Below, piece by piece: positions 4,372 through 53,986 of a stretch of 64,000 bases of DNA. This DNA is from Polyangium jinanense (GTDB lineage: Bacteria > Myxococcota_A > Polyangia > Polyangiales > Polyangiaceae). The stretch lies in the NCBI RefSeq assembly GCF_028435265.1, contig NZ_JAGTJK010000012.1, forward strand, positions 102,900 to 166,899, written 5' to 3'. The translations under genes and the position numbers were made by a program. Position 1 is the first letter of the stretch. Each line of letters starts with the position of its first letter. The notes below the pieces were generated by a model that worked only from the letters and a program-made list of their open reading frames with translations, was not told the DNA's origin and searched no databases.

Positions 4372-4548
4372 CGGCGTACGCGTCGCTCACCGAGAAGACG
4401 ATGAGCTCGCGGGCCTCGGCATTGCGACCGATCCAGGTGAGGCGCTCCTTGCCGGACGCCGGAGGCTGGTTCGTGTGGCCGCCAGCCCAGGCAATGCCCG
4501 TGAGCGCGATGTTGGGATCACCGACCGCGAGCAAGCCCGCGCGCGCAC
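4331..4548. repeat. Direct repeat B, copy 2 (218 bp; covers the TPR gene 3' end and the FGE gene 5' end)
   Basis: See 2830..3047. Confidence 0.9.
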
Positions 4549-9343: not shown

Positions 9344-9375
9344 GGGACCTTGATCCTTTGCTCCAGAGTCGTGGC

Positions 9376-25396: not shown

Positions 25397-25397
25397 C

Positions 25398-28190: not shown

Positions 28191-28191
28191 C

Positions 28192-38728: not shown

Positions 38729-40533
38729 GCAAGGGTGATCCGGATCGGGAAATGCTCGAGCTGTATGCGCGTGAGCTCGCGTATCTGCGCGAGCGTGGCG
38801 CCGAGTTCGCCAAGGATTATCCGAAGATCGCGGCGCGCCTCGGCACCTCGAACCAGGCCTCGTCCGATCCACACGTCGAGCGCCTGGTCGAGGCATTCGC
38901 GTTCCTCTCGGCGCGCCTCACGCGCGACATCGAGGCGGAGCTGCCGATTTACACGACCTCGCTGCTCGGCACCCTTTATCCGCAGCTCGCGTGTCCCGTG
39001 CCGGCGATGGCGATCGCCGGGTTCGAGATCGACCCGAAGGAGGCCAAGCTCGGCTCCGGGTACACGGTCGAGAAGCACACGCCGCTTTTCGCGGCCTCGC
39101 AAACCGGGCCGGTCTGTCATTTCCGCACCGCGTATCCGGTCACGCTCTGGCCGATCGAGATCGTCAATGCGGGCATGGTCCCGCCCGAGAACCTCGACGT
39201 TCCCTCGTGGCTGCTCACGAACGCGGCGGCGGCGCTGGAGATCGAGATCGCGACGGGCGGCGTTCCGCTCGACAAACTCGGCATGCGCTCGCTCCGCTTC
39301 CACATCACGGGCGGGGGCATGGGCGCGGCGCGCCTCTACGATCTGCTCGCGGCGCACGCCGTGCAGGTCCTCGTGGTCGGGGAAAAACCCTCGGAGGACT
39401 GGGCCTACGGAAAGATCCGGCCCGTCGGCTTCGAGGCGAACGAGGACGTCCTGCCGTATCCGCCGCACGCGCACCGCGGCCATCGCCTCGTGCAGGAGTA
39501 TTTCGCGTTCCCGGAGAAGTTCCATTTCTTCGACCTCGAACTGCCGAAGCTCCCGCCGCGCAAGAACGCGAAGATCCTCGTCCTCTTCGATCAGAAGCCG
39601 CCGGCCGGCGTCGCGGTTCGCCCGACGACGTTGAAGCTCGGCTGCACCCCGATCATCAACCTCTTCCCGCGCAGCGCCGAGCCCATCCGCGTCGATCACA
39701 CCCGGCCCGAATATCGCCTCGTCGCGGACGCGCGTCGCGAGCGGACCACGGAGATCCATTCGATCACGCGCGTCGCGGCCACGGCGCCCGGCGAGCCCAA
39801 GCAGATCGATTACGCGCCTTTCTTCTCGTTCGTGCACCACCGCGCGGGCGAAAGACCCCGCGCGTTCTGGCACGCGCGCCGCGTCGCCACGGGCCGCAAG
39901 GATCTGCCGGGCACCGACGTCTGGCTCACGTTCGTCGACACCGATTTCAAGCTCTCACGTCCCCCGTCGGAGACCGTTTACGCCGGCGTCCTCTGCACGA
40001 ACCGCGACCTCGCGAACGAGATCGCCAAGGACACGCAGCTCTCCCCCGAGCGCCCCGTCCCGGCCAAGAAAATCGTTTGTCTGACGAAACCAACCCCCCA
40101 GCGCGCCGCGCCGATGGGCGGCGAAGCGCTCTGGCGGCTCGTCTCGAACCTTTCGCAGAACCACCTCTCGATCACGGACGGCAAGACCGGCGTCGCCGCG
40201 CTCCGCGAGATCCTGCGCGCCTACGTCTTCGGCGATTCGCCCGACGCCGAGCGCCAGATCGACGCGCTCCTCGAAATTTCGAGCCGCGTGGTCACGCGTC
40301 GCCTCGGCAATGACGCGTGGCGGGGGTATTGCCGGGGCCTCGAGATCACGCTCACGCTCGCGGACGAGCAGTTCGCCGGATCGAGCCCGGTCCTTTTGGC
40401 CTCGGTCTTGAGCCGATTTTTCGCCTTGCAGGCGCACATCAATGCGTTCACCGAGCTCGTCCTGAAGCGCGCCTCGCGCGCGGAGGTCTGGAAACGATGG
40501 CCGCCCACGGCTGGCGAAAGAGCCCTTCTGTAG
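38725..40533 (+). CDS. tssF: T6SS baseplate subunit TssF
   Basis: 602 aa. LELYARELAYLRERGAEFAKDYPKIAARLG...DPHVERLVEAFAFLSARL is the canonical TssF N-terminus. Confidence 0.9.
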   Translation: MSKGDPDREMLELYARELAYLRERGAEFAKDYPKIAARLGTSNQASSDPHVERLVEAFAFLSARLTRDIEAELPIYTTSLLGTLYPQLACPVPAMAIAGFEIDPKEAKLGSGYTVEKHTPLFAASQTGPVCHFRTAYPVTLWPIEIVNAGMVPPENLDVPSWLLTNAAAALEIEIATGGVPLDKLGMRSLRFHITGGGMGAARLYDLLAAHAVQVLVVGEKPSEDWAYGKIRPVGFEANEDVLPYPPHAHRGHRLVQEYFAFPEKFHFFDLELPKLPPRKNAKILVLFDQKPPAGVAVRPTTLKLGCTPIINLFPRSAEPIRVDHTRPEYRLVADARRERTTEIHSITRVAATAPGEPKQIDYAPFFSFVHHRAGERPRAFWHARRVATGRKDLPGTDVWLTFVDTDFKLSRPPSETVYAGVLCTNRDLANEIAKDTQLSPERPVPAKKIVCLTKPTPQRAAPMGGEALWRLVSNLSQNHLSITDGKTGVAALREILRAYVFGDSPDAERQIDALLEISSRVVTRRLGNDAWRGYCRGLEITLTLADEQFAGSSPVLLASVLSRFFALQAHINAFTELVLKRASRAEVWKRWPPTAGERALL

Positions 40534-41558
40534 AGGCCTGGCTCTTCGACGAGGGGCACGCCTTCGATTTTTATCAGGCCGTCTCCCTCCTCGAACGCTT
40601 TCGGGAAGGCGACGCCGTCCCCGTCGGCGAGGGCTCCGATCCTTCGCGCGAGTCCGTGCGATTCGCCGGGAGCATCGCGCTCGCCTTCCCCGAGACCGAC
40701 GTCGCGCGCATTCGCCCGCCGCACCGCGAACGCGAGCCCGCGCAGATGCTCGTGAACTTCCTCGGTCTCGGCGGCGCCCTCGGCCCACTGCCGCCGCCGA
40801 TCGTCGAGTCGATTTACATGCGCGCCGTCCGCGGCGACACCGCGGCGCGGGATTTCCTCGACATCTTCAACCATCGCCTCGTCTCGTTCGCATATCGCAT
40901 CCGCAAGAACCATCGCCTCGGCCTCGGCATCTCCTCGCCCGAAAAAGACGGCGCGGCGCGGCACCTCTTCGCGCTCATGGGCCTCGGCTTTCAGGCGCTC
41001 GAAGGCCGCCTCGCGGTCCAGGATCGCGCCCTGCTCGAACACGCGGCAAACCTCGGAAGCGAGTCCCGTTCGCTCGAAGGCCTCGTCGCCATTCTCCGCC
41101 GGCATTTCGGCGTCCCCATCGAGCCCATCCCGCTCACAGGCGCCTTTCACCCGATCGAGGAAAACGATCGCACGGCGATCGGCCGATCCGGTCAGAACCG
41201 CGCACTCGGCCGCGACGCATGTCTGGGGGGCCGTTTCTGGGATCAGGAGTCCACGTTCGATCTGCGCATCGGGCCCATGAAGCTCGATGAATTCCTGCGA
41301 TTCCTCCCGGACGGCGACGCGCTCCGGCCTCTCTGCTCCCTCGTCCGTTTTTATGCAGGCGCACGATTCCACTTTGGCCTCATCCTCGTGCTGGCCGAGG
41401 GCGAGGCGCCGCGGATCGAGCTCGGCCGCGCCACGTGCGCGCTCCTCGGCCAAATCGCCTGGCTCGGAAACGTGAACAAGCACGGCGGCAGGGTGCGCGA
41501 GGTGCGTTTGTCGCGTGCGGCCATTCGGAAAGGCCTCGGTGAGGCGCCGGGCGGCTGA
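40497..41558 (+). CDS. tssG: T6SS baseplate subunit TssG
   Basis: The ATG at 40497 is in frame with track ORF 40317..41558 and overlaps tssF by 37 nt. FDFYQAVSLLERF...VRFAGSIALAFPETDV...MLVNFLGLGGALGPLP is the TssG pattern. Confidence 0.88.
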   Translation: MAAHGWRKSPSVEAWLFDEGHAFDFYQAVSLLERFREGDAVPVGEGSDPSRESVRFAGSIALAFPETDVARIRPPHREREPAQMLVNFLGLGGALGPLPPPIVESIYMRAVRGDTAARDFLDIFNHRLVSFAYRIRKNHRLGLGISSPEKDGAARHLFALMGLGFQALEGRLAVQDRALLEHAANLGSESRSLEGLVAILRRHFGVPIEPIPLTGAFHPIEENDRTAIGRSGQNRALGRDACLGGRFWDQESTFDLRIGPMKLDEFLRFLPDGDALRPLCSLVRFYAGARFHFGLILVLAEGEAPRIELGRATCALLGQIAWLGNVNKHGGRVREVRLSRAAIRKGLGEAPGG

Positions 41559-41611
41559 AACACTCCCTTGTCAACCGTCTGCGCGCCGGGATATCGTTCT
41601 GCTGAGGCCTT

Positions 41612-44600
41612 ATGACGACTGCAGAACAGAGCCAGGGCGCCACGGAGAGCATTCCGAGCAAGCTCGGGAAGTTCGCCACGGAGCAGATCGACAAGGCCGA
41701 GGTCACGGTCACGAAGGGCGTCTCTACCGTCCGTGACTCCACGAACCAGATCATCAGCAAGGCCGAAGAGCAGATCCTCAAGCTCAACAAGGCCCTCTAC
41801 GAGACCAAGAACGGCATCTCGTCCGGCATCGACACGGCCATCAAGGAGACGGAAGGCCAGCTCAAAGGGATCACGCCCGAGCTCAAGAAGATGGGCGAGG
41901 ATGCGATCAAGACGGCCAAGGACAAACTCGACGGACTCGTCGACGAGGTCGAGGGCAAGCTCGAATCGCAAAAAGACTCGCTCGTCAAGACGGCGCAGGA
42001 TCAGATTCGGAACGCGGCCGATCAGGCGAAGGGCAAGATCGACGAGATCGGACAGCTCGGCGAGGATCAGGCGAAGAAGGTCCTCGATGCGGTCAAGACG
42101 CAGGCCGACACCGTCGATCAGAAGCTCGGCGATCTCGAGGGGCAGATCGACGGCAAGATCCAGGCGATCGGCGACGACGTGCGCGGCAAGTTCGAAGCGG
42201 CGCTCGCCAAGGTGCCGGATCACGACGGCGCGAAGGTCGAGATGTCGGCGAACGTCGACGCCGTCGTCGCGGAGCTGCGTAGTGCCACGAAGGACTCGAT
42301 CGAGCAGGCGCGCGAGACGCTCAAGTCGCTGGTCAAGCAGACCGACGACACGATCATGCAGACGATCGGCGACGTGCGGCGCGCGATCGGCGAGGTCCCC
42401 GCTCGCATCAACCAGTGTGCGCAGGACATCCTCGCGAAGGTCAATGACGCGATCCAGAAGACGATCGACGAGATCTCGAACCTCGCGCACGGGCTCGTGG
42501 CGCGCACGGCGGAGCTGCTCAACCAGGCGCTGCTCACGATCACGAGCACCGTCGACAAACTCCTCGCCGACGGCTTCGCGCTCGTGCGTGGGATCAAGGC
42601 GGATCTCGATCGTCTCCTCGACAAACTGCTCGAACAGATCCGGGATCTGACGCTCGGCACGCTGGAGGACGTCCGCAAGGCGGCGAACGAGCTACTCGGC
42701 ACGTTCGAGGCTGAATGCAAGAAGATCCTCCAGACGATGGAGGAGTCCGTCATCGGCTCGGTCGAGGAGCTCGGCGGCAAGATGAACGCCTCGATCAAGG
42801 CGCTCCAGGCCGACCTGAACCTCGATGCCGACAAGATCGTCCGGGACCTCGTGGCCGAGGGCGCGAAAGGGCACGACGACGCGCTCGCCGACTTCATCAG
42901 CGCTGGTTATTCCGAGGACACCTCGGTCATCCCCAAGATCCGGGCCAAGGGCGAGGCTGCGATCAAGCAGATCGAGGCCAAGACGAAGGCCCAAGGGGAG
43001 AAGCTGATCAAGGACTTCGAGATGCAGGCGACCCTGCTGAAGCCCAAGATCCAGGCGCAGGGTATCAAGGTCGTCGCGCAGATCGCCGCGCTCGGACCGA
43101 AGCTTGCGATGCAGGCGGTCCAGATTGCGACGAGCATCGCGTCGTCCATCAAGGACAAGGGCGAGGCGGTCAAGAAGACGTTCGAGGAGCTGCAAAAGAC
43201 GCTCGTCGACGCGATCACGAAGAAGATCCCCGATTACCTCGAAAACTGCAAGAAGCAGATCAAGGCCGCGGCCGATGCGCTCGTCGAGGCGGGCAAGACG
43301 TTCTACGAGAAGACGCTCGCCGACATCATGGGGGCGATCAAGGCGGCCGAGGCGCGGTTCAAGCAGCTTGCCTCGGAGATGAAGGACCTCATCGAGACGC
43401 AGGTCCTCGCGCTCGTGGCCTCCATTCGCAGGACGGTGGAGACGTCCATCCAGCGCTTCAAGGATCTCGGCGCCGCGTTCGAGGAAAAGACGAATGCGCT
43501 CGTCAACGACATCCCGGCGCGGCTCATCAAGCTGGAGCAGGTCGCGCGGCTCGCGGTCGAGCGCGAGATCACGCTGGCGAAGGGGCTCGCCAATGCGACG
43601 AAGGACGACATTCTCCTGAAGGCGCGGACGACGCTGTCGGAGATCAAAAAAGCGGCGTACGGGGTCCTCGGCGGCATCCGGGGCGATTTCGGCGCGGTGC
43701 AGGGATCGCTCGCGCTCATCGTCCCGGCGGGCGCGGGGCTCGACGCGGCGGGCGCGATCAACCTCGCGGTCTCGGGCGGGCTCGAAGGGATGATCGCGTC
43801 GGCGGCGAATGCGGCGCAGGCCGCGGTGACGGCGGGCGTGAATGCGGCCGAGGCCGTGAACAATGCAGCCGAGCAGGCGGCGGCCGCGATGAGCGCGGCT
43901 GGATTCGACGGCGCGGCGAAGTCATTGACGGACGTGCTCTCGCAGCAGATGGGCGAGGTGCGGACGGAGGGCGAGAAGGCCAAGAACGTCATTGCCGCGG
44001 CGAAGGAGAAGATGACGGCGGTCGCCAAGGAGGCGACGGACACCTGCACGCAGGCGGCGCAGGCGGCGCAGGCCGCGGCCGCGGAGGTCGTGGCGGCCGC
44101 GAATTCGACGGGCGACGCGATCAAGGCGTCGGCGGAGAACCTGACGAAGGGCCTCGAAAAGGCGAAGGACATCGTCAAGGATGCCGGCAAGGCCGCGATG
44201 CAATCGATGAAAGAGGCCCAGGACGTGCGCAAGGGAGGCGACGGCGCGCAAGCCGGCGCGGGTGCGCAGGCCAAGGCCGGCGGGGCGGATGGCGCGGCGG
44301 CGGGCGCGGATGCGGGCGGCGCGGATGGCTTGGCGGTGCCCGAGGGCGAGGCGGCGGCTCCGGAAGGGGAGGCGGCCGCGGCTCCGGGCGGCGCGGAGGC
44401 GGCTCCGGACGGCGCGGCGGCGGCTCCGGATGTCAAGGCAGCGGCTCCGGATGCCAAGGCGGCGGTTCCGGATGCCAAGGTGGCGGTTCCGGATGCCAAG
44501 GTGGCGGTTCCGGATGCCAAGGTGGCGGCTCCGGATGCCTCGAAATCGGCGCCGGATGTCCCGAAATCGGCGCCGGATGTCTCGAAACCGGAACTGGACG

Positions 44601-45289
44601 TCTCGAAACCGGAACCAGGCGCCGATGTAGCGGCGGTGGCCGCCAAGGTACCGGATCCGGCTGCCAAGGTAGCGGCTCCGGCCGCCAAGGTAGAGGTGCC
44701 GGCCGCCAAGGTAGAGGCGCCGGCCGCCAAGGTAGAGGCGCCGGCCGCCAAGGTAGAGGCGCCGGCCGCCAAGGTAGAAATTCCGGGCGCCCCGAAAGCG
44801 GCGCCGGCCGCCAAGGTAGAAATTCCGGCCGCCCCGAAGGCGGCGCCGGCCGCCAAGGTAGACATTCCGGCTGCCAAGGTAGACGTTCCGGCTGCCAAGG
44901 CGGTGCCCGGCGTGCCGGAAGGCAAGGCTCCGGCGCCCCCAGGCAAAGCTGCGATGCCGGAAGGCAAACCGCAGGTGCCCGAAGGCGGCATGCCCGGGGT
45001 GCCAAAAACCGGCGAAAAGCCCGCCTTTCCTCCCGCCCCCGCGCCTCAGGCCCCCGCGCCTCCCGCTCCGGCGGACGTGGCCCCCTTCGCGCCCGCGCCG
45101 AAGCCGCCGGCCGCGCCCGCCGTCCCTGCCGGCGCGAAACCCGCGCCCGCCGCGCCCGCCGCCCCCGTGATCCCTGCCGGCGCGAAACCCGCGCCCGCCG
45201 CGCCCGCGCCGCCCGCCACGCCCGCGGCCAAGCCCGTCGTTCCCGCCGCCCCCGGCAGCAAATGGCCTGGCAGCGGCAACAAGCCTTGA
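41612..45289 (+). CDS. Uncharacterised 1225-aa helical-repeat protein with a Pro/Ala/Lys-rich tandem-repeat C-terminus, last gene of the T6SS core operon
   Basis: It starts 53 nt after tssG on the same strand. No signal peptide or TM helix is evident. The first ~870 aa are K/E/D/A/Q-rich amphipathic-helix-like sequence (for example KAEEQILKLNKALYETKNGISSGIDTAIKETEGQLKGITPELKKMGEDAIKTAKDKLDGLVDEVEGKLES). The last ~350 aa contain AVPDAKV, SAPDV(P/S)K and PAAKVE(A/V/I) heptad repeats and then an AP-rich tail. No enzymatic motif was recognised. Confidence 0.75.
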   Translation: MTTAEQSQGATESIPSKLGKFATEQIDKAEVTVTKGVSTVRDSTNQIISKAEEQILKLNKALYETKNGISSGIDTAIKETEGQLKGITPELKKMGEDAIKTAKDKLDGLVDEVEGKLESQKDSLVKTAQDQIRNAADQAKGKIDEIGQLGEDQAKKVLDAVKTQADTVDQKLGDLEGQIDGKIQAIGDDVRGKFEAALAKVPDHDGAKVEMSANVDAVVAELRSATKDSIEQARETLKSLVKQTDDTIMQTIGDVRRAIGEVPARINQCAQDILAKVNDAIQKTIDEISNLAHGLVARTAELLNQALLTITSTVDKLLADGFALVRGIKADLDRLLDKLLEQIRDLTLGTLEDVRKAANELLGTFEAECKKILQTMEESVIGSVEELGGKMNASIKALQADLNLDADKIVRDLVAEGAKGHDDALADFISAGYSEDTSVIPKIRAKGEAAIKQIEAKTKAQGEKLIKDFEMQATLLKPKIQAQGIKVVAQIAALGPKLAMQAVQIATSIASSIKDKGEAVKKTFEELQKTLVDAITKKIPDYLENCKKQIKAAADALVEAGKTFYEKTLADIMGAIKAAEARFKQLASEMKDLIETQVLALVASIRRTVETSIQRFKDLGAAFEEKTNALVNDIPARLIKLEQVARLAVEREITLAKGLANATKDDILLKARTTLSEIKKAAYGVLGGIRGDFGAVQGSLALIVPAGAGLDAAGAINLAVSGGLEGMIASAANAAQAAVTAGVNAAEAVNNAAEQAAAAMSAAGFDGAAKSLTDVLSQQMGEVRTEGEKAKNVIAAAKEKMTAVAKEATDTCTQAAQAAQAAAAEVVAAANSTGDAIKASAENLTKGLEKAKDIVKDAGKAAMQSMKEAQDVRKGGDGAQAGAGAQAKAGGADGAAAGADAGGADGLAVPEGEAAAPEGEAAAAPGGAEAAPDGAAAAPDVKAAAPDAKAAVPDAKVAVPDAKVAVPDAKVAAPDASKSAPDVPKSAPDVSKPELDVSKPEPGADVAAVAAKVPDPAAKVAAPAAKVEVPAAKVEAPAAKVEAPAAKVEAPAAKVEIPGAPKAAPAAKVEIPAAPKAAPAAKVDIPAAKVDVPAAKAVPGVPEGKAPAPPGKAAMPEGKPQVPEGGMPGVPKTGEKPAFPPAPAPQAPAPPAPADVAPFAPAPKPPAAPAVPAGAKPAPAAPAAPVIPAGAKPAPAAPAPPATPAAKPVVPAAPGSKWPGSGNKP
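44420..44900 (+). repeat. In-frame 21-bp tandem repeat blocks inside the 1225-aa gene
   Basis: Block 1 (~44420..44625) has units like gcggttccggatgccaaggtg and ggcgccggatgtcccgaaatc. Block 2 (~44655..44900) has units like ccggccgccaaggtagaggcg. Several adjacent units are identical. Confidence 0.85.
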
Positions 45290-45296
45290 AGAGCGC

Positions 45297-45686
45297 TCAG
45301 GGCACCTGCACCGTGACCTGCCCGGGGAACGAGATCTGAATCACCCCGCCCCACATGCACATCAGCTTCGAGCTGTTGTTCAGCGCGGGCATGTTCGCGA
45401 GCAGCACCGTTGGGGCACCGACGATCCACGGCGCCGGCGTGTTCGGAATGCACGGCATTGGCGTGAGCACGCCCATCGCCGCCGCCGTCGCCGCGGCCAC
45501 CGTCGGGTTCGCCAGGCTCTGACACATCCCGAACGGCAGCACGTTCAGCATGGGCTTGCCGTCCATGATGTTCGCCAGCGGCCCCGCGCTGTTCATCGTC
45601 CGGTTCGCGGGAAGCACCGTGAGCGAGCTCGGCGCCACGCCGAAGCTGCATTGCATCATCGCCCCCATGCATACGTGCTGGCCCAT
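45297..45686 (-). CDS. DUF4280 (PAAR-like) spike-tip protein, stand-alone
   Basis: 129 aa. GAMMQCSFGVAPSSLTVLP...NVLPFGMCQSLANP...PCIPNTPAPWIVGAPTVLLANMPALNNSSKLMCMWGGVIQISFPGQ matches the DUF4280 pattern (C.FG...L.V...FG.C...C.P...W...C..GG.I.I...GQ). It is the last gene of the vgrG operon. Confidence 0.8.
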   Translation of the reverse strand: MGQHVCMGAMMQCSFGVAPSSLTVLPANRTMNSAGPLANIMDGKPMLNVLPFGMCQSLANPTVAAATAAAMGVLTPMPCIPNTPAPWIVGAPTVLLANMPALNNSSKLMCMWGGVIQISFPGQVTVQVP

Positions 45687-45688
45687 CG

Positions 45689-46441
45689 TCAGCCTCCCGC
45701 GAGCTTGTTCACGACCTTGTCGAAGAAGGACTCTTTTTTCTCCTCCTTCGCCTTCGGAATGCCCTTGTCGTCGTACTCGACCTCGCCGCGCTTCTCGCCG
45801 TCCTTGTACGTCGCCTTCGCCTTCAGCTTGCCCTGCACGTCGTAGCTGAACGCGTCGCCTTGCTTCTTGCCGTTGTCATAGATGGCGCGCTCGCGGACCT
45901 CGCCGTTCGGGAAGTACTCGATCACCTCCCCGTGCAGTTTGTCGGCCTTGTAGCTCGCTTTGCGCAGGGTGTTGCCCTTGCCGTCGAGGAACAAGGATTC
46001 CCCTTCGAGCTTGCCGTTCTTGTAGAACGACCGGACGACCTCGTTGCCCTGCTCGTCGAACGACATGAACGGGCCGTTCTGCTTGCCCTTCTCGAAATGC
46101 ATGAGCGTCCGGAGCCGGCCGTCGTCGTAGAGCCGCGTCGGCCCGTGCTGCTCGCCCTTCGCGAACGTGACGATCTGCGAGACCTTGCCGTTCTCGTCTA
46201 CGATCTTCGTCTCGCCGTGGAGCACGCCGTCCTGGAATGACGAACGCTCGACCTCGCGTCCTTCCGGATCGTACGTGATCGACAAACCGTGCAGCTTGCC
46301 GTTCTTGTAATTCGCCCGGTGCGCGATCTGCTTTTCGGTCTCCCCGTACTGGACGAACTCGCCGTGGAGCACGCCGTCTTCCATCTCGAACCGGGAGATC
46401 AGCTTGCCGTTCTCGTCGCGCTCTTCGTGGTCGGTCGGCAT
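45689..46441 (-). CDS. MORN-variant repeat protein (YwqK-family-like)
   Basis: 250 aa with ~9 repeats of the form Y.NGK.HG....Y...G (NYKNGKLHGLSITYDPEG, FQDGVLHGETKIVDENG, FYKNGKLEGESLFLDGKG, YKADKLHGEVIEYFPNG...) and a Lys-rich tail. It lies between vgrG and the DUF4280 gene with 10- and 2-nt spacers. Confidence 0.75.
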   Translation of the reverse strand: MPTDHEERDENGKLISRFEMEDGVLHGEFVQYGETEKQIAHRANYKNGKLHGLSITYDPEGREVERSSFQDGVLHGETKIVDENGKVSQIVTFAKGEQHGPTRLYDDGRLRTLMHFEKGKQNGPFMSFDEQGNEVVRSFYKNGKLEGESLFLDGKGNTLRKASYKADKLHGEVIEYFPNGEVRERAIYDNGKKQGDAFSYDVQGKLKAKATYKDGEKRGEVEYDDKGIPKAKEEKKESFFDKVVNKLAGG

Positions 46442-46451
46442 CGGATCCTCG

Positions 46452-48452
46452 CTAATTGATCTTCACCATGCCGCCCTTCAAGGTCAGCATGCCGCCGCCC
46501 TCCACCGCCGCCTGCGCGCCGCCCTTCGCCTTCAGCGCGATCGCGCCCTCGAGCGTCATGTTCGTCCCGCCCTTGGCCTTGAAATCGGTGCCGGCCTTCA
46601 GGTCCATCGCCGTCCCGGACTCGGCCTTGAAATCCGTGCCCGCCTTCATCGAAAACGCCTGCTTGGCCTTGATCGTGACGCTCTTCGCCTCGATCACGAG
46701 GTCGCCGTCGACCTTGATCGTGTAGTTCTTCGTCACCTTGTAATCGAGGTTCGCCTTGTTCGTGTGCGCCTCGTCCTTGGTGACCGTGAGCGTGCGTTTG
46801 CCCTTCACGCTGTGCGTCTCGTCGCCCTTGTCGACCTTGATCGTGCGGTTGCCCTTGGTGACCGTGAGCGTCTCGTCGCCCTCCTCGATCGTCACCTTCC
46901 GCTCGTTTTTGACGTTCTTCGTGTAATCGTGGAGGACCTTGACCGTCCAGTCGTTCTCCACCTCGAAGAGCATGTCCTTCTGGGCGTGCGCGTAAAACTC
47001 CTCGTTATCCTTCTTGTCGTCGAAGCGCAGTTCGTTCCCCGCCTCGCCCTCCTTCGACGATCGGCTCAGGATCGTGCTCTTCGTCTGCGCGCCCGGCAGC
47101 CCATAAGGCACCGTCTGCTCGGCGTTGTACACCGAGCCCGTCACGAGCGGCCTGTCCGGGTCGCCGTCGATGAAGCTCACGACGACCTCCTGCCCGATGC
47201 GCGGCAAGAACCACGCGCCCCAGCTCTTGCCCGCCCACGCCTGCACGACGCGCACGAAGCACGAGCTCTTGTCGTCCTTCGCGCCCTTGCGATCCCAGTG
47301 GAACTGGACCTTGATGCGCCCGTATTCGTCGGTCCACTGCTCCTCGCCGCTCTTGCCCACGACGACGGCCGTCTGCGTGCCGGGGATCGCGGGCTTCGGC
47401 GTGATGCGCGGCGGGCGGTACGACGTCTTCTTCGGGAACGCCTCGAAGGTATTCGTGTACCCCTCCTGGCTTGCGCGGTGCATGATCGAGGTGAGAACCC
47501 AGTCCGTGTTCGCGTCGTCCCGATCGTGCTCGTCGAGCTTGAACGCGTGCCCCGCCGTGAAGGCGCGGCAGCTCGATGTACCCGACAAACGCACCGCCCG
47601 CGCCTCCTCGGCCTCGATGCGGAGCTTCGCGCGCGTGTCGCCCGGGCTTTTCTCGATGTGCCCGCCCGGGTACTCGAAGAGCTCGAGCTTGGCCGTTTCG
47701 CCCGAGACCTCCGCGAGCAGCGACGTGCTCGGCATCTCGAAGTTGTAATCCGTCGACGCGTACTTTCCCGCGACGATCTCCTCTTCGAGCGTGCACTCGA
47801 GGACGGCGTCCTCGTCCGTCGACGTGGAGAACTGCTCGACGAACCGCGCCTTGTCGAGGTTCGGGCACGGCGCGGCCGACGCGCTGTCGTCCGAGAGCAC
47901 CATCACGTGCTTGCCGTCCTCGTGCTTGAAATAATAATGGATCCCCTCGTCCTCCATGAGCCGCGACACGAAATCGAGCGCGGTCTCCTGGTACTGCACG
48001 CAGTAGGGGCGCGGGGTGTAGGAGCCCTTCAGCGAATCCTTGAAGTGCTCGCCCGACGAGAAGCCGAGCTCCTGGAAGAGCGCCTTCAGGATGTCGGGCA
48101 CGCTCTTCTCCTGGAAGATCCGGCAATCGCTGGTCTTGCCGAGCAGCCATAACCACGGGTGCAGCTCCGCGCGGTAACGCGTCTGCTTGCCGACGCGCCC
48201 CGCCTGGACGAACCGCGTGCAGATCCCGTGGATGAAGCGCGGCTTCTCCTTGGCCATGCCCCGGATCGTCAAGGTCACGCCCTTGCCGACGATCGCCTTG
48301 AAGTCGAGCGCCTTCTCCGGCGACAAAAGCTCGAGCTCGAAGCGGAAGAGCCCCGAGATCCGCTCTTCGCCATGCAGATCGACGAGCAGCACCGCGTCCG
48401 CGCCGAAGGGCGTCGAGATGGCGATGCCGAGGGTGCCCTGCGGATAAGGCAT
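46452..48452 (-). CDS. vgrG: T6SS spike protein VgrG (TssI), no C-terminal effector extension
   Basis: 666 aa. LLVDLHGEERISGLFRFELELLS..., YRAELHPWLWLLGKTSDCRIFQEKSVPDILKALF and RVVQAWAGKSWGAWFLPRIGQEVVVSFIDGDPDRPLVTGSVYN are followed by gp5-like beta-helix repeats (HSVKGKRTLTV.., DYKVTKNYTIKVDGDL..). Confidence 0.92.
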   Translation of the reverse strand: MPYPQGTLGIAISTPFGADAVLLVDLHGEERISGLFRFELELLSPEKALDFKAIVGKGVTLTIRGMAKEKPRFIHGICTRFVQAGRVGKQTRYRAELHPWLWLLGKTSDCRIFQEKSVPDILKALFQELGFSSGEHFKDSLKGSYTPRPYCVQYQETALDFVSRLMEDEGIHYYFKHEDGKHVMVLSDDSASAAPCPNLDKARFVEQFSTSTDEDAVLECTLEEEIVAGKYASTDYNFEMPSTSLLAEVSGETAKLELFEYPGGHIEKSPGDTRAKLRIEAEEARAVRLSGTSSCRAFTAGHAFKLDEHDRDDANTDWVLTSIMHRASQEGYTNTFEAFPKKTSYRPPRITPKPAIPGTQTAVVVGKSGEEQWTDEYGRIKVQFHWDRKGAKDDKSSCFVRVVQAWAGKSWGAWFLPRIGQEVVVSFIDGDPDRPLVTGSVYNAEQTVPYGLPGAQTKSTILSRSSKEGEAGNELRFDDKKDNEEFYAHAQKDMLFEVENDWTVKVLHDYTKNVKNERKVTIEEGDETLTVTKGNRTIKVDKGDETHSVKGKRTLTVTKDEAHTNKANLDYKVTKNYTIKVDGDLVIEAKSVTIKAKQAFSMKAGTDFKAESGTAMDLKAGTDFKAKGGTNMTLEGAIALKAKGGAQAAVEGGGMLTLKGGMVKIN

Positions 48453-48570
48453 GGATCTTCAGACGAGAGCGTACCGGGCTTCTCGGGTTTTCGGCAAGAG
48501 GCTTGATCTCCGGCGCACACTCATCGATGATCGAGCGCGCTGTGGTGTGCTTTCAGGAAGAGACCTGCCG

Positions 48571-49860
48571 ATGACGTTCTTCCGAACGGGCCATGGTCTC
48601 TTCCAGTTCGGGAGGCCGAAGCGCCTCGACAGGCACGGGATCCTCGCCTTTCTGCGCAGCGTCGCGACCGATCGTGGAGGCATGCTGGAGCTTCGGCGCA
48701 TCCTCGCCGACGAGCTGCATCGCACGTCGATCCACAACATGCGCGACGAGCTCGTGATCGAGCAGCTCGCGGACCGTTACCTGCGCGGCTCGCTCACGCT
48801 CGTCCACGTGCGCCCGCTCGACATCGGGATCGAGCTCGAGGGCTTCCTCGTCGAAGGCGCGGACGCCACGCCTTTGACCGGCCCGAAGAACGAGGCCGGC
48901 GACCTGCGCCCCGCGCCCGAGGTCCCACCCGAATATCCGGTCCTCGCGCGTGTCGAGTCCGATCAGATCATCGACTCCACGCTGAAGCTCGTCGCGAAAC
49001 TCGGCGATCTGCTCTTCGGGGCGTTTGGCCTGCAAAAACGTCCCTCGACGCTCGCGAAGGAGCTCGTGCTGCTCGCCGCCGAAGAGGCGAGCGGCGTGAA
49101 GCTCGCGAACACGAAGGTCGATCTCGATCTCGGGTTGCAACTGCATCCGCAGGGCAAGATCCTGCTGCCCGATCCGCAAGTGAAGGACGCGTACGTCGCC
49201 GCGGCGGCCGAGATCGCGGCGGGGCCGCGTCCGGCGGCAAAGGGTCTCATCGATTTGATGTGGCCGCTCACGCGGGTCGACACGAACCGCCGCTTCGACA
49301 ATCCCGTCGGGGCCGGGCCGGTGAAGAGCGATCAAAGCGACGGGAAGAAGGGCCCCGAGGCCGCGCTGGATTGGGTCGAAATCGAGCTCGTCGACGACGG
49401 CGATCCGCCGAAGCCCTACGCCGGCGCGCGGTATCGAATCGAGCTCGAGGGCGGCAAGGTGATCGAGGGGACGCTCGACGACGACGGCAAGGCGCGCGTC
49501 GATGGGATTCCGTCGGGCAGCGGGACCGTCACGTTCCCGGACATCGACGCCGGGTTTTGGGGGACGAACGGCGCAGGCAGCGCAGGCGCCGCCGCGCCGC
49601 CGCCTCCGTCTTCGTCGTCGTCCTCCGCGGTCTCCGCGGACGAGGCGTGGGTCGAGATCGAGCTCGTCGACGACGACGACCCGCCGAAGCCCCGCGCCGG
49701 CGCGCGATATCGTATCGAGCTCGAGGGCGGCAAGGTGGTCGAGGGGACGCTCGACGACCAAGGGAAAGCGCGCGTCGACGGGATTCCGTCGGGCAGCGGG
49801 ACCGTCACGTTCCCGGATATCGATGGCAGCACGTGGGGGCCGGGAGAACGAGGCACATGA
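48571..49860 (+). CDS. Hypothetical protein (~429 aa) with two copies of a ~59-aa beta-rich module; first gene of the putative effector operon divergent from vgrG
   Basis: The ATG at 48571 follows caggaagag and is in frame with track ORF 48451..49860, whose first 40 codons would overlap the vgrG start. No signal peptide. The C-terminal modules read WVEIELVDD(G/D)DPPKP.AGARYRIELEGGKV.EGTLDD.GKARVDGIPSGSGTVTFPDID. Confidence 0.65.
   Translation: MTFFRTGHGLFQFGRPKRLDRHGILAFLRSVATDRGGMLELRRILADELHRTSIHNMRDELVIEQLADRYLRGSLTLVHVRPLDIGIELEGFLVEGADATPLTGPKNEAGDLRPAPEVPPEYPVLARVESDQIIDSTLKLVAKLGDLLFGAFGLQKRPSTLAKELVLLAAEEASGVKLANTKVDLDLGLQLHPQGKILLPDPQVKDAYVAAAAEIAAGPRPAAKGLIDLMWPLTRVDTNRRFDNPVGAGPVKSDQSDGKKGPEAALDWVEIELVDDGDPPKPYAGARYRIELEGGKVIEGTLDDDGKARVDGIPSGSGTVTFPDIDAGFWGTNGAGSAGAAAPPPPSSSSSSAVSADEAWVEIELVDDDDPPKPRAGARYRIELEGGKVVEGTLDDQGKARVDGIPSGSGTVTFPDIDGSTWGPGERGT
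49372..49824 (+). repeat. Internal duplication: two 177-bp units (49372..49548 and 49648..49824) separated by a Ser/Pro/Ala linker
   Basis: The two units align colinearly without gaps, with most positions identical at the nucleotide level by eye. Confidence 0.85.
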
Positions 49861-50098: not shown

Positions 50099-53000
50099 AT
50101 GAGCAAGAAGATGCCGACGAAAGGGGTGCTCACGTTCGAGGCCGAGGGCAGCGACTCGAGCAGCTCGCCTTATTACTCGCGCGTGCTCCACCACCCGACG
50201 ATGGGGTCGGGCGTGACGATCGGCCGCGGCTACGACATGAAGGACCGTTCGTCCGCGGACGTCGAAAAAGATTTCGTCGCGGCGGGTCTGTCCGCGGATG
50301 TCGCGAAGAAGTATGCCAAAGGCGCGGGGCTCACGGGGTCCGAGGCGCGGACGTTCGTCACGAACAACAAGGGCGTCTTGCCCGAGCTCACGTGGGACCA
50401 GCAGCTCGCGCTCTTCGAGTCCACGTATGCGTGGCACGAGAAGGACGTCAAGCGCATCTGCGACAAGGAAGATTGTCAGAACATCTACGGCGTCGTGGAC
50501 TTCAAGACGCTCCACCCGCGCATCCTCGACGTGCTCGTGGATCTCAGGTTCCGCGGCGACTACACGCCCGCGTCGCGCAAGCGCATCCAGAAGCTCGTCG
50601 TCGAGAACGATTATGCGCGCTTCCGCGCGGACCTCTCCAATCGGTCGAACTGGAGCGCGGTGCCGGAGGACCGTTTCGATCGGCGGAGCAAGTACCTGAA
50701 GGACGCGCCGCAGACGGACGACACGGCCGATCACGAGGATGTGACGTACAGCACGCCGACCAAATCGTTTGACCTCAAGACGATGGGCGAGGCAGAGCTC
50801 TACGATCACCTCCGGAGCGTGTGGAAGGCGGAGCAGAAGGCGTTCGGCAACGAGGGCAAACCCGAATTCGACTTCCAGGACGAGGAGGGCCGCGTGAACC
50901 TGCTCGGCGCGCGCGGGTTCGACGCCGACCAGATGGTGCCCGTGCCGAGCACGAACACGAAATACGACGACACGCTTTTCCTCGTCTACAAGAAGGACGG
51001 CGCGAAGCACGTCGAGAAGTTCCACTACTCGAGCGAGTGGACGAGGACGGGCTCGAAGGGGGCCGTGATCATCCTCGGGCAGCACAAGTACTGCCTGGCG
51101 ATCCACAAGAAGCTCAAGGAAGACGGCACGCCCTACCCGTACAACAAGCTCCCCGCGTGGCGCGATTACTACAACACGAACAAGACGCAGCCGCCGGGAG
51201 CCGGTTACCGCGCATTGAACCCGGACCCGACGGTCGGCATCGTCCGCGTGCACGATGCAAGCGCGGCAGGATCCGTGGGCGCTGAGACCACGGGGGTCAC
51301 GCAGAACGCCTCGATCAACATCCATTACGGCGGCGAGGTGCCGAGCGGCTGGACGCCCAGCAAGGGGTGGTCCGACGGGTGCCAGGTCCTCATGCGCGGC
51401 GACCGGTACCTGCGGTTCATGGAGGTCATCGAGTCCGATCACTCCCTGAAGGGCACGATCAACAACGAGCTCGCGCCCAAGCCTTCGGCCGACGGGAAGC
51501 GGTCGCTCATCTACACGCTCGTCAAGGGCGACTCCCTCGCGCCGAGGGACGCGCCGTCCATGGGGTTCCCCGTGGACATCGGCAAAGGGAAGAAGATCGA
51601 CAATTCGACCACGCTCGCGATGTTCGAGCACACCGAGAAGACGATCGACAGCGGCTATTTCCCTCTCGGGACGAATACGACCTGGCACGGCGGCGCCCAT
51701 TTGCACGTCGCCGAGGGGACCGCGGTCCACGCGATGTTCGACGGGCGGATCGTCGCCGCGCGGCTGCCCGCGGCGGCGGACAAATCGAAGGGGGCCTTCG
51801 GCAGCAGGAACTTCATCCTGATCCGGCACGAGATCGACGGGGATCGCTTGAACAAGGCGAATGCCCTGCTCAAGCGCACCCTCATCGGGTACACGATCCG
51901 CGCCGAGACGCTCGTGCTCCGCAAGGAGCCGGGCAACGCCGCGGCCGTCGTCGATACCTTGAAGGTGGGCGACGAGGTGCTGCTGAAGACCGTCCCCCAT
52001 CCGAAGAAGGACGGCGTCTCGTGGGCGCACGTCGTCGTTTCCAAATCGGCGAAGGAAGGCCTGAAGGACAAGGTCGGCTATGTGGCCGCCACGTCCTTGC
52101 TCGTCACGCCCAGGTACGCGCCGCCGAAGGAGCGCGTGAAGCCGTCCGAGACGCGGGTGGTGTATTCGCTCTACATGCACCTCGGGCCCCAGGCGCTCGA
52201 CACGACGAACTCCGTCCTCGCCTCGATCCCCTGGGTCTCGGGGGCGCAGTGGAGCGTGTCGGACGACGTCCGGCTCCGCAGCGCGCCGGGCGTCCCGGAT
52301 CCGGACAAGACGCAGATCGGTACGCTCGTCTCCGGCGACACGTTCGTGCAGCTCACCCCCGACCTCGTGACCGCGGGGAGTTATCAGTGGATGAAGGTCC
52401 GCGTCACCAAGGCGAAAGACGCGAAGCTCGCGAACAAGGAGGGGTTCGTCGCGAAGCTCGACAAACGCATGAGCCTCACGAAGGCGCCGAGCGCGGAGAT
52501 CCTCGACAAGCTCAAGTCCGGCGACGTGGTCAAGCTCGACAAACCGGTGGTCGCGGGGGAGCAGATCTGGACGGCGGGCACGATGACGGGGGCCTCGGGT
52601 GGGGCGCAGGCGGGCATTCACTGGGAGGTCTTCTCGGAGCAGCCCCTCTTCCCGGACTGGCCGTCCGCCGACGATCCCGACGAAAATCTGAACATGGACG
52701 TGAAGAAGATTTTCGACATGATCGAGCAGGAGTTCTGGGGGTACAACGACACGATCTCCGCGTCCGAGCTGAACGATTTCTACAAGAACAATCCCAAGGC
52801 GAAATCGCTGCGATACTACGCGTGCCGGTTCATGAGCGAGTGGGGCTGCGACATCGACAAGGCCGTCGCGCAGATCCAATCGAGGGGGCTCTACAGCGTC
52901 TCGGGGCTCGCCGACAAGATGCGGCCCTACCTGTGGTGGAAGGAGGCGGAGGGCAAGAAGGTGGAGCTGCCGAAGAGCCCGATCGTCTGGCACTACAACC

Positions 53001-53986
53001 CGATCGGGTTCGTCTACGCGATGACCAAGATCGAGGAGACCCCCGCCCCGCGCACCGAGCCGGCGCAGACGAAGGAGGATCCGAAGGTCGCCACGGAGAC
53101 GCAATGGTCCGGCGTCGCGTACGGCGATTACGTGCTGAAGAAGGGCGACGACGACGGCAAGCAGACCTGGGGCGGCCTCGCGCGCAAGGAGAAGGGCACA
53201 TACGTGGTCGAGCTGCAGAAGGATCTGCTCGAGCTCGGCTACTGGATCAGCGCCGCGAGCTCGAACAAGGGGATGAACGCCGACGGCAATTTCGGCGGCA
53301 CGGTGCGCGGCGCCGTCATGCTCTTCCAGCGCGAGCACGGGTTGAAGGAGACGGGGGAGGTCGACGCGGCGACGGCGAAGCTCATCAAGGAAAAGACGAA
53401 GGTAGCGAACTACGAGCGGCCCGGGCACAAGGCGGGCGATTACGGTCAGTTTTATCAGCTCCCGCCTTCGGAGAACTACGAGCGGTACGACGAGGTGCGC
53501 GACGACAATTGCATCCCGAAGGACAACTGGGGCACGAAGGAGATGATCAAGATGCTCACCTCCGCGGGCAAGGCCTGGAAGGAGCAAGGAAAGTCGCTGT
53601 TCCTGGTCGGGGACGTCTCGCTCTACAACGGTGGCAAGATGGACCCGCACAAGTCCCACCAGGACGGCACCGGCGTGGACCTCGACTCCGATGAGCTGTG
53701 CAGCATCAACCGGGCGACGTTCAAGAAAGAGGAGTCCCTGTCGCTCACGCAGCTGCTCATCAAGCACGGCGCGAAGCGCGTCCTCTTCAATTGCAAGTAC
53801 GTGACCGACCAGGTGCCCGAGGCGTTCGCGTTATCGGGGCACCACCACCATTACCACGTCGACGTGAAGCCGGGGCTGAAGACGAACGAGCACCCCGAGG
53901 AGGAGTGCAAGTGGTGCCACAAGTCGGTGTACAAGAAGTGCGACTACGCCAAGAAGGCGAAGCGCTCGGACTCGGAGCTCACCTGA
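50099..53986 (+). CDS. Multi-domain peptidoglycan-hydrolase protein (1295 aa), candidate T6SS antibacterial effector
   Basis: No signal peptide. Modules read by eye, in order:
- A lysozyme/pesticin-like N-terminus (FEAEG...GVTIGRGYD, ~50100-50700).
- A region with INIHYGG...WSDGCQV (~50900-51500), reminiscent of the YkuD-fold H...(S)xGC active site.
- An M23/LytM-like domain split by two SH3b-like inserts (WHGGAHLHVAEGTAVHAMFDGRIV, FILIRHEIDG, YSLYMHLGP, AGIHWEVF; ~51660-52650).
- PG_binding_1 (VVELQKDLLELGYW...DGNFGGTVRGAVMLFQREHGLKETGEVD, ~53190).
- A MepA/LAS-type metallopeptidase (DPHKSHQDGTGVDLD ... GHHHHYHVD, ~53500-53900). Confidence 0.8.
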   Translation: MSKKMPTKGVLTFEAEGSDSSSSPYYSRVLHHPTMGSGVTIGRGYDMKDRSSADVEKDFVAAGLSADVAKKYAKGAGLTGSEARTFVTNNKGVLPELTWDQQLALFESTYAWHEKDVKRICDKEDCQNIYGVVDFKTLHPRILDVLVDLRFRGDYTPASRKRIQKLVVENDYARFRADLSNRSNWSAVPEDRFDRRSKYLKDAPQTDDTADHEDVTYSTPTKSFDLKTMGEAELYDHLRSVWKAEQKAFGNEGKPEFDFQDEEGRVNLLGARGFDADQMVPVPSTNTKYDDTLFLVYKKDGAKHVEKFHYSSEWTRTGSKGAVIILGQHKYCLAIHKKLKEDGTPYPYNKLPAWRDYYNTNKTQPPGAGYRALNPDPTVGIVRVHDASAAGSVGAETTGVTQNASINIHYGGEVPSGWTPSKGWSDGCQVLMRGDRYLRFMEVIESDHSLKGTINNELAPKPSADGKRSLIYTLVKGDSLAPRDAPSMGFPVDIGKGKKIDNSTTLAMFEHTEKTIDSGYFPLGTNTTWHGGAHLHVAEGTAVHAMFDGRIVAARLPAAADKSKGAFGSRNFILIRHEIDGDRLNKANALLKRTLIGYTIRAETLVLRKEPGNAAAVVDTLKVGDEVLLKTVPHPKKDGVSWAHVVVSKSAKEGLKDKVGYVAATSLLVTPRYAPPKERVKPSETRVVYSLYMHLGPQALDTTNSVLASIPWVSGAQWSVSDDVRLRSAPGVPDPDKTQIGTLVSGDTFVQLTPDLVTAGSYQWMKVRVTKAKDAKLANKEGFVAKLDKRMSLTKAPSAEILDKLKSGDVVKLDKPVVAGEQIWTAGTMTGASGGAQAGIHWEVFSEQPLFPDWPSADDPDENLNMDVKKIFDMIEQEFWGYNDTISASELNDFYKNNPKAKSLRYYACRFMSEWGCDIDKAVAQIQSRGLYSVSGLADKMRPYLWWKEAEGKKVELPKSPIVWHYNPIGFVYAMTKIEETPAPRTEPAQTKEDPKVATETQWSGVAYGDYVLKKGDDDGKQTWGGLARKEKGTYVVELQKDLLELGYWISAASSNKGMNADGNFGGTVRGAVMLFQREHGLKETGEVDAATAKLIKEKTKVANYERPGHKAGDYGQFYQLPPSENYERYDEVRDDNCIPKDNWGTKEMIKMLTSAGKAWKEQGKSLFLVGDVSLYNGGKMDPHKSHQDGTGVDLDSDELCSINRATFKKEESLSLTQLLIKHGAKRVLFNCKYVTDQVPEAFALSGHHHHYHVDVKPGLKTNEHPEEECKWCHKSVYKKCDYAKKAKRSDSELT

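Follow-up and report, generated by a model that had tools for sequence, protein, structure and literature searches.

The gene and its protein

The window analysed here, a stretch of 64,000 nucleotides (nt) from Polyangium jinanense (assembly GCF_028435265.1, contig NZ_JAGTJK010000012.1), contains a type VI secretion system (T6SS) locus in which an open reading frame (ORF) at 41612..45289 on the + strand encodes a giant protein, here called X. This protein belongs to a family that is real, structurally constrained, very rare and previously undescribed; the family is new, and its architecture, an amphipathic rod followed by a disordered tail, is of a known type. Positions refer to the window and residue numbers to X. 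Loci that carry X or a relative have numbers beginning with L, and individual relatives have numbers beginning with P. The genes and sites around X are as follows:

28174-29520 (+): tssK
29528-30283 (+): tssL
40317..41558 (+): tssG (Pfam T6SS_TssG, 6.7e-87; TIGR03347, 1.1e-82; both matches begin at residue 80)
41568..41597 (+): putative sigma-70-like promoter footprint TTGTCA-N18-TATCGT, within the 53-nt tssG-X spacer, recognised by consensus match and conservation
41612..45289 (+): coding sequence of X, ATG start, 1225 amino acids (aa)
45297..45686 (-): DUF4280/IglG-like PAAR-like gene (PF14107, 1.1e-35; NF041248, 3.1e-17, under its cut-off)
45689..46441 (-): MORN-repeat protein without a signal peptide (PF07661, 1.4e-18)
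46452..48452 (-): vgrG (TIGR03361, 3.8e-183)

The genes upstream of X and on its strand are tssK, tssL, tssM, tssA, tssB, tssC, hcp, tssE, tssF and tssG, all with strong Pfam/NCBIfam matches, and those downstream form a convergent operon encoding VgrG, the MORN-repeat protein and the DUF4280/IglG-like PAAR-like protein. As a preliminary description of this DNA had stated, X is a 1225-aa gene that starts 53 nt after tssG on the same strand (tssG ends at 41558), and its stop codon lies 7 nt from that of the convergent PAAR-like gene. The actual start of tssG is probably later than 40317.

Several spurious long ORFs overlap X, as is usual in GC-rich genomes. That X is a genuine gene and not a chance GC-rich ORF follows from its base composition and its evolution: GC content at codon positions 1, 2 and 3 is 0.70, 0.47 and 0.87, and the ratio of nonsynonymous to synonymous substitution rates (dN/dS) of residues 1-870 against close orthologues is 0.08-0.22 (0.13-0.14 at dS ~1.2), values that fall within the range of the adjoining tss genes (0.06-0.40). 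Purifying selection thus acts on the helical part of X as strongly as on the core genes of the T6SS.

The preliminary description had also let the core operon end with X, a claim that is weakened by two findings: X has its own conserved, predicted promoter, and tssG is missing upstream of X in a sister lineage (L007 and L017). The footprint is the sole promoter-like site in 41300-45800, where 0.2 would be expected by chance. Its hexamers (cTTGTCAa...gTATCGT) are kept upstream of X in L001-L005, L015 and L016, while the sequence between and around them and their distance from the end of tssG vary, as does the 5' untranslated region, which is 14-80 nt long; the version in L007 is TTGTCT-N18-TATGAT. 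Because X has this footprint of its own, its expression would be separable from that of the structural operon. We found no terminator-like site on the + strand between tssG and X, so read-through from tssG into X is possible.

The protein itself can be divided into the following parts:

41645..41674 (+): residues 12-21, N-terminal motif ESIPSKLGKF, common to bacterial relatives (alignment A2)
41651..43582 (+): residues 14-657, hendecad (11/3) amphipathic alpha-helical region, defined by periodicity, an AlphaFold2 (AF2) model and near-gapless alignment
42905..42952 (+): invariant loop G432-Y433-x-E435...I440..I443...G447, motif AGYSEDTSVIPKIRAKG, with columns invariant in the 15-sequence alignment A2
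43688..43891 (+): residues 693-760, an Ala/Gly-rich, weakly hydrophobic, lineage-specific segment (Ala 40% over 701-760; AF2 confidence <50)
43892..44221 (+): residues 761-870, C-terminal conserved helical block ending in AGKAAMQSMKEAQ, aligned with the ...AG..GKxGMEAAKAA block of P0001, P0003, P0004 and P0007
44222..44326 (+): residues 871-905, Gly/Ala/Asp hinge, seen in the translation, with short 9-20-nt repeats
44332..44986 (+): about 30 tandem heptads in 21-nt units (EAAAPEG, AAAPDAK, SAPDVSK, AAKVEAP and PEGKAPA sub-arrays; Tandem Repeats Finder period-21 arrays of 3.5-13.4 copies each)
45105..45226 (+): distal part of the tail, rich in Ala and Pro and containing a 48-nt (16-aa) repeat (Tandem Repeats Finder period 48, 2.4 copies over 45105-45218; short-period repeats to 45226)
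45260..45286 (+): residues 1217-1225, conserved extreme C-terminus KWPGSGNKP (the tails in L015 and L016 end ...KWPGSGKPNA)

Much of what the preliminary description said about this architecture is borne out. The Lys/Ala/Pro-rich composition that it reported is evident, with 16.8% Ala and 10.3% Lys in residues 1-870 and 33% Ala and 21% Pro in the tail; the Gly/Ala hinge is present at residues 871-905; and the proline-punctuated heptad tail corresponds to the 21-nt arrays, seven residues being the commonest spacing between successive prolines. It had detected neither a signal peptide nor a transmembrane (TM) helix, and the maximum 19-residue Kyte-Doolittle mean is indeed only 1.57, reached in the Ala/Gly-rich segment 693-760, in a stretch that includes Asp and Glu.

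As to the amphipathic repeats, which had been likened to those of apolipoproteins and LEA proteins, the pattern is strong. The hydrophobic period over residues 14-657 is 3.66-3.68 residues (i.e., 11/3) and stays coherent over more than 200 residues at a time; its spectral power of 216-348 compares with about 60 +/- 13 in shuffled sequences, and autocorrelation has maxima at lags 11, 22, 33, 55, 66 and 99. The hydrophobic face spans about +/-60-90 degrees, Lys and Arg are most frequent at 90-120 degrees (i.e., at the interface), and acidic residues increase towards the opposite pole. Prolines are scarce, with nine in residues 14-657 and ten in residues 1-870. The AF2 model, built from a 21-sequence alignment, is all-helical, with helices at residues 87-198, 204-430 and 494-657 (the longest being of 227 residues) and a single central non-helical break at residues 431-438; its confidence is moderate to low (pLDDT 68, pTM 0.35), and it is therefore to be trusted for secondary structure only.

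The same periodicity accounts for the resemblances that X shows to known proteins. Its best Pfam and PDB-profile matches are to apolipoproteins, those in Pfam being below threshold: PF01442 (Apolipoprotein) gives 61.7 bits with full-length X and 66.1 bits with residues 1-870, short of the gathering cut-off of 90 bits, and reversed X scores 60.3 bits. The apolipoprotein likeness thus survives as a periodicity and not as homology, and we keep it as a physical analogy only. X and its relatives also match several PHROG families of 'tail length tape measure protein', with E-values as low as 1.5e-9 and 4.6e-17, and here reversed X outscores forward X on the same families (1.8e-14 vs. 1.5e-9), so that tape-measure homology was likewise rejected. 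Since reversed X matches these families and shuffled X does not, both sets of matches reflect shared hendecad periodicity and composition rather than ancestry. A Foldseek comparison of the AF2 model with the PDB returned only the coiled-coil arms of SMC, MukB, Rad50 and JetC, at a TM-score of about 0.1.

Two other roles that such a protein might suggest were considered and set aside. For a pore-former with a TM segment or hydrophobic hairpin, the two most hydrophobic stretches are residues ~470-520, which are amphipathic and contain Lys, and residues 693-760, which are Ala/Gly-rich and lineage-specific; neither is TM-like in hydrophobicity. X is also unlikely to be a hydrophilic protectant of the LEA-3 type, since its many bulky hydrophobic side chains and its invariant positions argue for a folded rod.

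A rare family in Bacteria and archaeal-type genomes

To define the family we scanned one genome per species for orthologues, scanned metagenomes separately, and ran an exhaustive phmmer search against 1.84 billion representative proteins. The genome scan returned seven loci, all from Polyangium/Polyangiaceae, at 76-97% identity, and the metagenomes added one locus at 71% and two at 35-37% identity; the sister-lineage orthologues are those of L007 (76%) and L017 (71%). Only 31 relatives came from the phmmer search, eight of which are long proteins that are colinear with X (22-28% identity, E = 3e-78 to 3e-31) and near-gapless over ~690 columns. P0001, P0003, P0004, P0006, P0007, P0008 and P0009 have phmmer E-values of 3e-78 to 3e-39 against X.

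What unites the family is colinearity over about 650-860 residues together with positions that are invariant in alignment A2, i.e., G417, G432, Y433, E435, I440, I443, G447, F469, Q483 and R582, which are concentrated in the loop AGY-ED-S-IP-IR-KGE. Members are ~1100-2300 aa long and leaderless, and in each the conserved helical block ends in AG..GK.GM.AAKAA and gives way to a disordered-looking tail; in full-length relatives this tail always consists of low-complexity repeats particular to the lineage, is about 240-400 aa long, and in most of them is acidic. At the N-terminus, X, P0009, P0008 and P0006 have ESIPxRLG where the archaeal-type relatives carry CxCxxCxxGRKA (alignment A2). Segment 693-760 of X is not conserved in the distant relatives, which are charged there.

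Searches of curated and general collections agree with the preliminary label of 'uncharacterised'. No family for X exists in curated Pfam, NCBIfam or PDB, and against the Pfam/NCBIfam T6SS families (TssA-M, Tag) X gives only sub-threshold helical-repeat matches, so that the reported lack of a recognisable T6SS core motif holds. A word-index protein search gave no match for X, and the family profile retrieved only fragments because its list of candidates was full at 8000; among 2.9 million viral contigs (IMG/VR) none carried a relative, X had no match in plasmid records, the exact protein is absent from the encoding-contig collection, and the literature searched held nothing comparable to the family.

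All eight short-read contigs that carry a close orthologue (L001-L007, L017) end within the repeat tail, at residues ~870-904. Because the 21-nt repeats break these assemblies, full-length X is missing from protein collections and its downstream context is lost. In the long-read metagenomic contigs L015 and L016, the tails are read through, and are ~380-396 aa long and similar in character, with different repeat units and the KWPGSG end retained.

Four relatives (L008, L011, L013, L020) lie on contigs with archaeal features, such as genes for archaellins, for geranylgeranyl reductase and for a zinc ribbon of the TFIIS type. In these archaeal-type loci, the X-family genes are 28-38% identical to one another, and each is accompanied by a gene for a partner of ~500 aa, 45-58% identical among the four, which lies immediately upstream or, in L020, 3 kb away:

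L008, 8427-9917: partner gene
L011, 8215-9930: partner gene
L013, 7027-8634: partner gene
L020, 8711-10204: partner gene

The partner and the X-family gene are the only genes common to all four loci. The partner is itself rare, with eight homologues among 5.8 billion protein clusters. Two of these eight match PHROG 4930 'baseplate hub' (E = 1.3e-5 to 5e-3); no match was found in Pfam, by sequence in the PDB, to the VgrG of the window by hhalign, or in phages by tblastn, and the AF2 model of the partner has a pLDDT of 38. Identification of the partner as a baseplate hub was therefore not adopted and is kept as a weak lead. There are no sheath or tube genes near the archaeal-type loci or the other distant relatives.

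A further clue comes from three bacterial relatives that contain an OmpA peptidoglycan-binding module, P0008, P0010/P0035 and P0006, of which P0008 (38.7 bits) and P0035 (49.3 bits) pass the Pfam cut-off of 27.2 bits. All of them lack a signal peptide and any credible TM helix, and none is encoded in a T6SS locus. The presence of OmpA modules in leaderless proteins hints at a site of action within the envelope to which the family has no access through the Sec pathway.

Several other genes recur in the vicinity of the family. In L011 (13552-19449, +) and L020 (17897 to the locus end, +), the X-family gene is followed by a protein of ~2000 aa, 77% identical between the two loci and without Pfam domains apart from a faint Por_Secre_tail match, and two small genes (~170-200 aa) are common to L011 and L013. 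Large proteins with the MopE metal-binding motif are encoded near X-family genes in the window (57347-63625, +), L007 (6201-8126, -), L017 (7887-9935, -) and L009 (2054-5122, -); in L007 and L017 the gene immediately precedes the X-family gene in divergent orientation, whereas in the window it follows X at a distance of 12 kb. Genes with FGE-sulfatase domains recur as well (L008, L009/L010, L017). Both MopE and FGE-sulfatase domains are common in Myxococcota.

Possible roles of X in Polyangium

Within Polyangium, the association of X with the T6SS is regular. The order tssA...tssG-X is kept in five Polyangium genomes, and the position of X within the T6SS locus is kept in at least seven Polyangium-type loci (L001-L005, L015, L016), in keeping with the earlier view that the gene is T6SS-embedded. 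Wherever the tail is read through, X is followed by the vgrG-MORN-DUF4280 spike operon and then by a 469-aa gene, in L015 and L016 as in the window.

We tentatively propose, with less than even confidence, that in Polyangium the T6SS spike may have co-opted X as a leaderless substrate with affinity for envelopes or membranes. X would form a long, thin hairpin or bundle of helices in the cytoplasm, would be recruited at or near the VgrG/DUF4280 spike or else carried in the Hcp lumen, and would be exported on firing. Once outside, the straight hydrophobic stripe of its hendecad helices could bind a membrane or envelope, much as exchangeable apolipoproteins open onto lipid, and the proline-punctuated Ala/Lys/Glu heptad tail could serve, like that of TonB, as an extended spacer. 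Secretion, recruitment to the spike and membrane binding are all predictions from sequence. Several features of X and its surroundings are consistent with them: T6SS genes flank X on both sides, and X adjoins spike genes (DUF4280, MORN, vgrG) in the manner of a cargo effector; it has no leader or TM helix, and leaderless relatives carry OmpA modules; its promoter footprint would free its expression from the structural operon; its basic residues gather at the interface of the hydrophobic face; its 11/3 periodicity extends over more than 600 residues, in AF2 helices of 110-230 residues that give a thin, elongated shape; and the window contains other effector-type genes (a WHH nuclease with a SUKH gene, and a PG_binding_1 protein with an M74-like peptidase).

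A number of observations weigh against export by the spike. X contains no T6SS effector marker (MIX, PAAR, Rhs etc.) and no toxin domain recognisable by Pfam or NCBIfam, and only 7 nt separate it from the DUF4280 gene, with no ORF between them that could be an immunity gene. It is convergent with the vgrG operon, hence in a separate transcription unit, and it is conserved to the same degree as TssF and TssC, which is unusual for polymorphic effectors. Its charge pattern is only mildly 'class A', a weak signal that is equally compatible with a soluble helical bundle, and the tertiary arrangement in the AF2 model is unreliable. The preliminary description had asked whether homologues adjoin a T6SS elsewhere: they do so in the Polyangium-type loci, and fail to do so in all seven distant loci (L008, L009/L010, L011, L012, L013, L014, L020), in which there are no T6SS genes within 5-10 kb on either side; four of the seven are on archaeal-type contigs, in which one would not expect a T6SS. 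Outside Polyangium, this is largely the outcome that the description had named as a refutation. In L007 and L017, whose contigs end in the tail and can be read upstream only, X is preceded not by tssG but by a divergent MopE-like gene and then by cydAB (L007) or a transposase. Because the distant loci lack T6SS genes and these two lack tssG, adjacency to the T6SS amounts to roughly one evolutionary event. Finally, L016 has metabolic genes, a 3' remnant of tssG and then X with the spike genes, the core operon being absent. Taken at face value, this 'orphan spike island' would favour the spike reading, with X travelling together with vgrG, but it may be a real rearrangement or an assembly chimera, and we have down-weighted it: L015 (1-10776) and L016 (10042-20822) are 94% identical, belong to one long-read metagenome assembly, and diverge at window position ~41310 inside tssG, and the L016 junction coincides within 6 nt with the first base of its sibling contig L015 in this error-prone assembly.

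The same observations lend themselves to another explanation, to which we give almost the same weight: that X is unrelated to the T6SS and is an ancient coiled-coil or amphipathic scaffold (e.g., a cytoskeleton-like rod, or a binder of lipids or membrane surfaces with an entropic-bristle tail) with the same function in archaea and Myxococcota, its location being an accident of lineage. This would account for the occurrence of full-length colinear relatives (22-38% identity) in the seven loci, including the four archaeal-type ones, that have no T6SS genes, for the MopE-like (and in L007 cydAB) rather than tssG neighbours of the L007 and L017 orthologues, for the promoter footprint, for purifying selection typical of a housekeeping or structural protein, and for the lack of both an immunity gene and an effector marker. 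Shared synteny within Polyangium is, moreover, expected by descent alone, because these genomes are 88-97% identical at the X locus. However, unrelated genes are rarely wedged into T6SS clusters with 53 nt on one side and 7 nt on the other, and the arrangement persists to dS ~0.4-0.5. The OmpA modules of leaderless relatives also fit poorly with a purely cytoplasmic role, and the coupling to a specific partner gene in the archaeal-type loci suggests a dedicated system rather than a generic scaffold.

A third reading, unlikely but not far behind these two, is that X is a non-secreted accessory or structural rod specific to Polyangium, which would serve as a tether, spacer or stabiliser for the complex of baseplate and spike or for the far end of the sheath, the role (cap, stopper, anchor or length factor) preferred in the preliminary description. 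X does follow tssG directly on the same strand with no intervening terminator-like site, is conserved like the core genes, and is present in every Polyangium T6SS locus examined; and since the scanned ORFs of the window included no recognisable ClpV/TssH or TssJ (whose genes may lie in another part of the genome), non-canonical accessory parts are possible. But core and accessory components normally co-occur with the T6SS across lineages, which the X family does not, and the sister lineage lacks the linkage to tssG. The separate promoter footprint and the lack of any TssA-M or Tag family match point in the same direction, and a 2026 review of T6SS accessory genes has no helical or coiled-coil class. 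The earlier suggestion of a novel T6SS-associated function is thus partly supported, in that X is novel and T6SS-embedded, and weakened in that X is not demonstrably operonic or a general T6SS component. As was also said then, a structural component, a secreted substrate and a disassembly factor cannot be told apart by sequence, and the first of these now looks less likely than the description had assumed.

A broader and improbable reading is that the family as a whole is a new class of giant hendecad proteins that partner the spike or hub of contractile-injection-type machines in both Bacteria and Archaea. The partners would be VgrG/DUF4280 in the one case and the ~500-aa protein, as a divergent gp27/gpD-like hub, in the other, and each family member would be a lumen-compatible rod, tethered to the spike, that is expelled on firing and opens onto the target membrane. 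X would then be an injected 'apolipoprotein-like' membrane binder or an analogue of a tape measure, neither of which is known from canonical T6SSs. The least probable reading, in which family members are tape-measure-like rods within the tube lumen with one end in a VgrG/gp27-type hub (the archaeal partner being that hub), draws on the PHROG tape-measure matches, the hub match of the partner, the exclusive pairing of the two genes in the four archaeal-type loci and the adjacency of X to the vgrG module, and we regard it as very unlikely since reversed X matches those PHROGs more strongly and shuffled X not at all, as expected of periodicity, the hub PHROG is reached by only two of eight partner homologues (which are otherwise without Pfam, PDB, VgrG or phage support and poorly modelled), relatives are absent from the viral contigs and sheath or tube genes from the archaeal-type loci, and canonical T6SSi systems are, to our knowledge, not known to use a tape measure.

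If the T6SS spike indeed exports X or works together with it, X would represent a new type of T6SS-associated protein, a non-enzymatic, apolipoprotein-like rod of more than 1200 residues with a disordered spacer, and could explain how a myxobacterial T6SS acts on prey envelopes without a classical toxin. Whether or not X has a role in the T6SS, the analysis defines a very rare family that is common to Myxococcota and archaeal-type genomes, with a sharply conserved loop and a dedicated partner in the latter. Two lessons are more general: a 21-nt repeat tail broke every short-read assembly examined and so hid the full-length protein, and reversed-sequence controls are needed before 'tape measure' or 'apolipoprotein' matches of hendecad proteins are believed.

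The window contains several other genes of interest:

4343-11602 (-): giant TPR-repeat protein, 2419 aa
15399-19898 (+): giant TPR-repeat protein, 1499 aa
20018-23725 (+): 1235-aa ORF without a Pfam match, preceding the WHH nuclease gene
23816-25396 (+): 526-aa protein with a C-terminal WHH/Colicin-DNase nuclease domain
25347-25916 (+): SUKH/SMI1_KNR4 immunity-type gene, overlapping the preceding gene
48451-49860 (+): 469-aa protein of no family, divergent from vgrG
50099-53986 (+): 1295-aa protein near vgrG with PG_binding_1 and a Peptidase_M74-like (murein endopeptidase) C-terminus

The two TPR-repeat proteins are encoded in a stretch of 72-75% GC upstream of the T6SS locus. WHH and SUKH form a classical toxin-immunity pair, located here just upstream of the genes for the T6SS membrane complex, and the 1295-aa protein is a candidate peptidoglycan-hydrolase effector. 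The 469-aa protein contains two tandem copies of ~60 aa (WVEIELVDD.DPPKP.AGARYRIELEGGKV.EGTLDD.GKARVDGIPSGSGTVTFPDID), and its gene has two paralogous copies in both L015 (7273-8936) and L016 (17317-19004).

Comparison with known systems

TagL and TagN are OmpA-type peptidoglycan-binding accessory proteins of the T6SS (PMC13584744). In the X family, the OmpA module occurs in the relatives P0008, P0010/P0035 and P0006 and not in X itself, and these relatives are without the TM anchor of TagL. Tape-measure proteins of phages and contractile injection systems resemble X in being very long and nearly all helical, with similar periodicity and composition, and X is encoded near vgrG; it lies, however, outside any tail-gene order and has a 350-aa, proline-rich disordered tail.

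Scy, FilP and crescentin are cytoskeletal rods of ~1000 residues that are rich in coiled coil, are built of non-heptad repeats containing hendecads, and have neither an enzymatic domain nor a signal peptide. X is likewise a non-heptad hendecad rod of ~1000 residues without either feature, but it has no sequence similarity to these proteins and lacks a 51-residue (7 + 4 x 11) repeat: lags 11 and 33 each have a z of ~2, and lag 51 one of 0.86. Its period is 3.66-3.68 rather than 3.64, and it has the GY-ED loop and the long proline-rich tail in addition. Proteins of the TolA/TonB type span the envelope by means of a long Ala/Lys/Glu-rich helix and a proline-punctuated extended segment of alternating charge. 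Both elements are shared by X, in which the N-terminal TM anchor and any TolA/TonB C-terminal domain (by Pfam) are absent.

Among the T6SS substrates that are large and leaderless and belong with spikes of the DUF4280 (IglG) type are Francisella PdpC and PdpD. X is similar to them in exceeding 1200 aa, in having no assigned fold and in being encoded in a T6SS locus with a DUF4280 PAAR-like tip; unlike the Francisella-type system, that of Polyangium has the gene content of a canonical T6SSi (TssA, B, C, E, F, G, K, L, M, Hcp and VgrG). IglG and DUF4280 are treated in PMC5014421 and PMC5349215.

There is also a physical likeness to the exchangeable apolipoproteins (ApoA-I/A-IV/E and apolipophorin-III; PF01442, PF07464), which share with X long amphipathic helices of 11-residue periodicity, a Lys/Ala/Glu-rich composition and basic residues near the interface of the polar and apolar faces. 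Whereas apolipoproteins consist of proline-punctuated 22-mers, X has only 10 prolines in 870 residues and helices of up to 227 residues; it is also four to five times longer, leaderless, and equipped with an invariant loop and a repeat tail.

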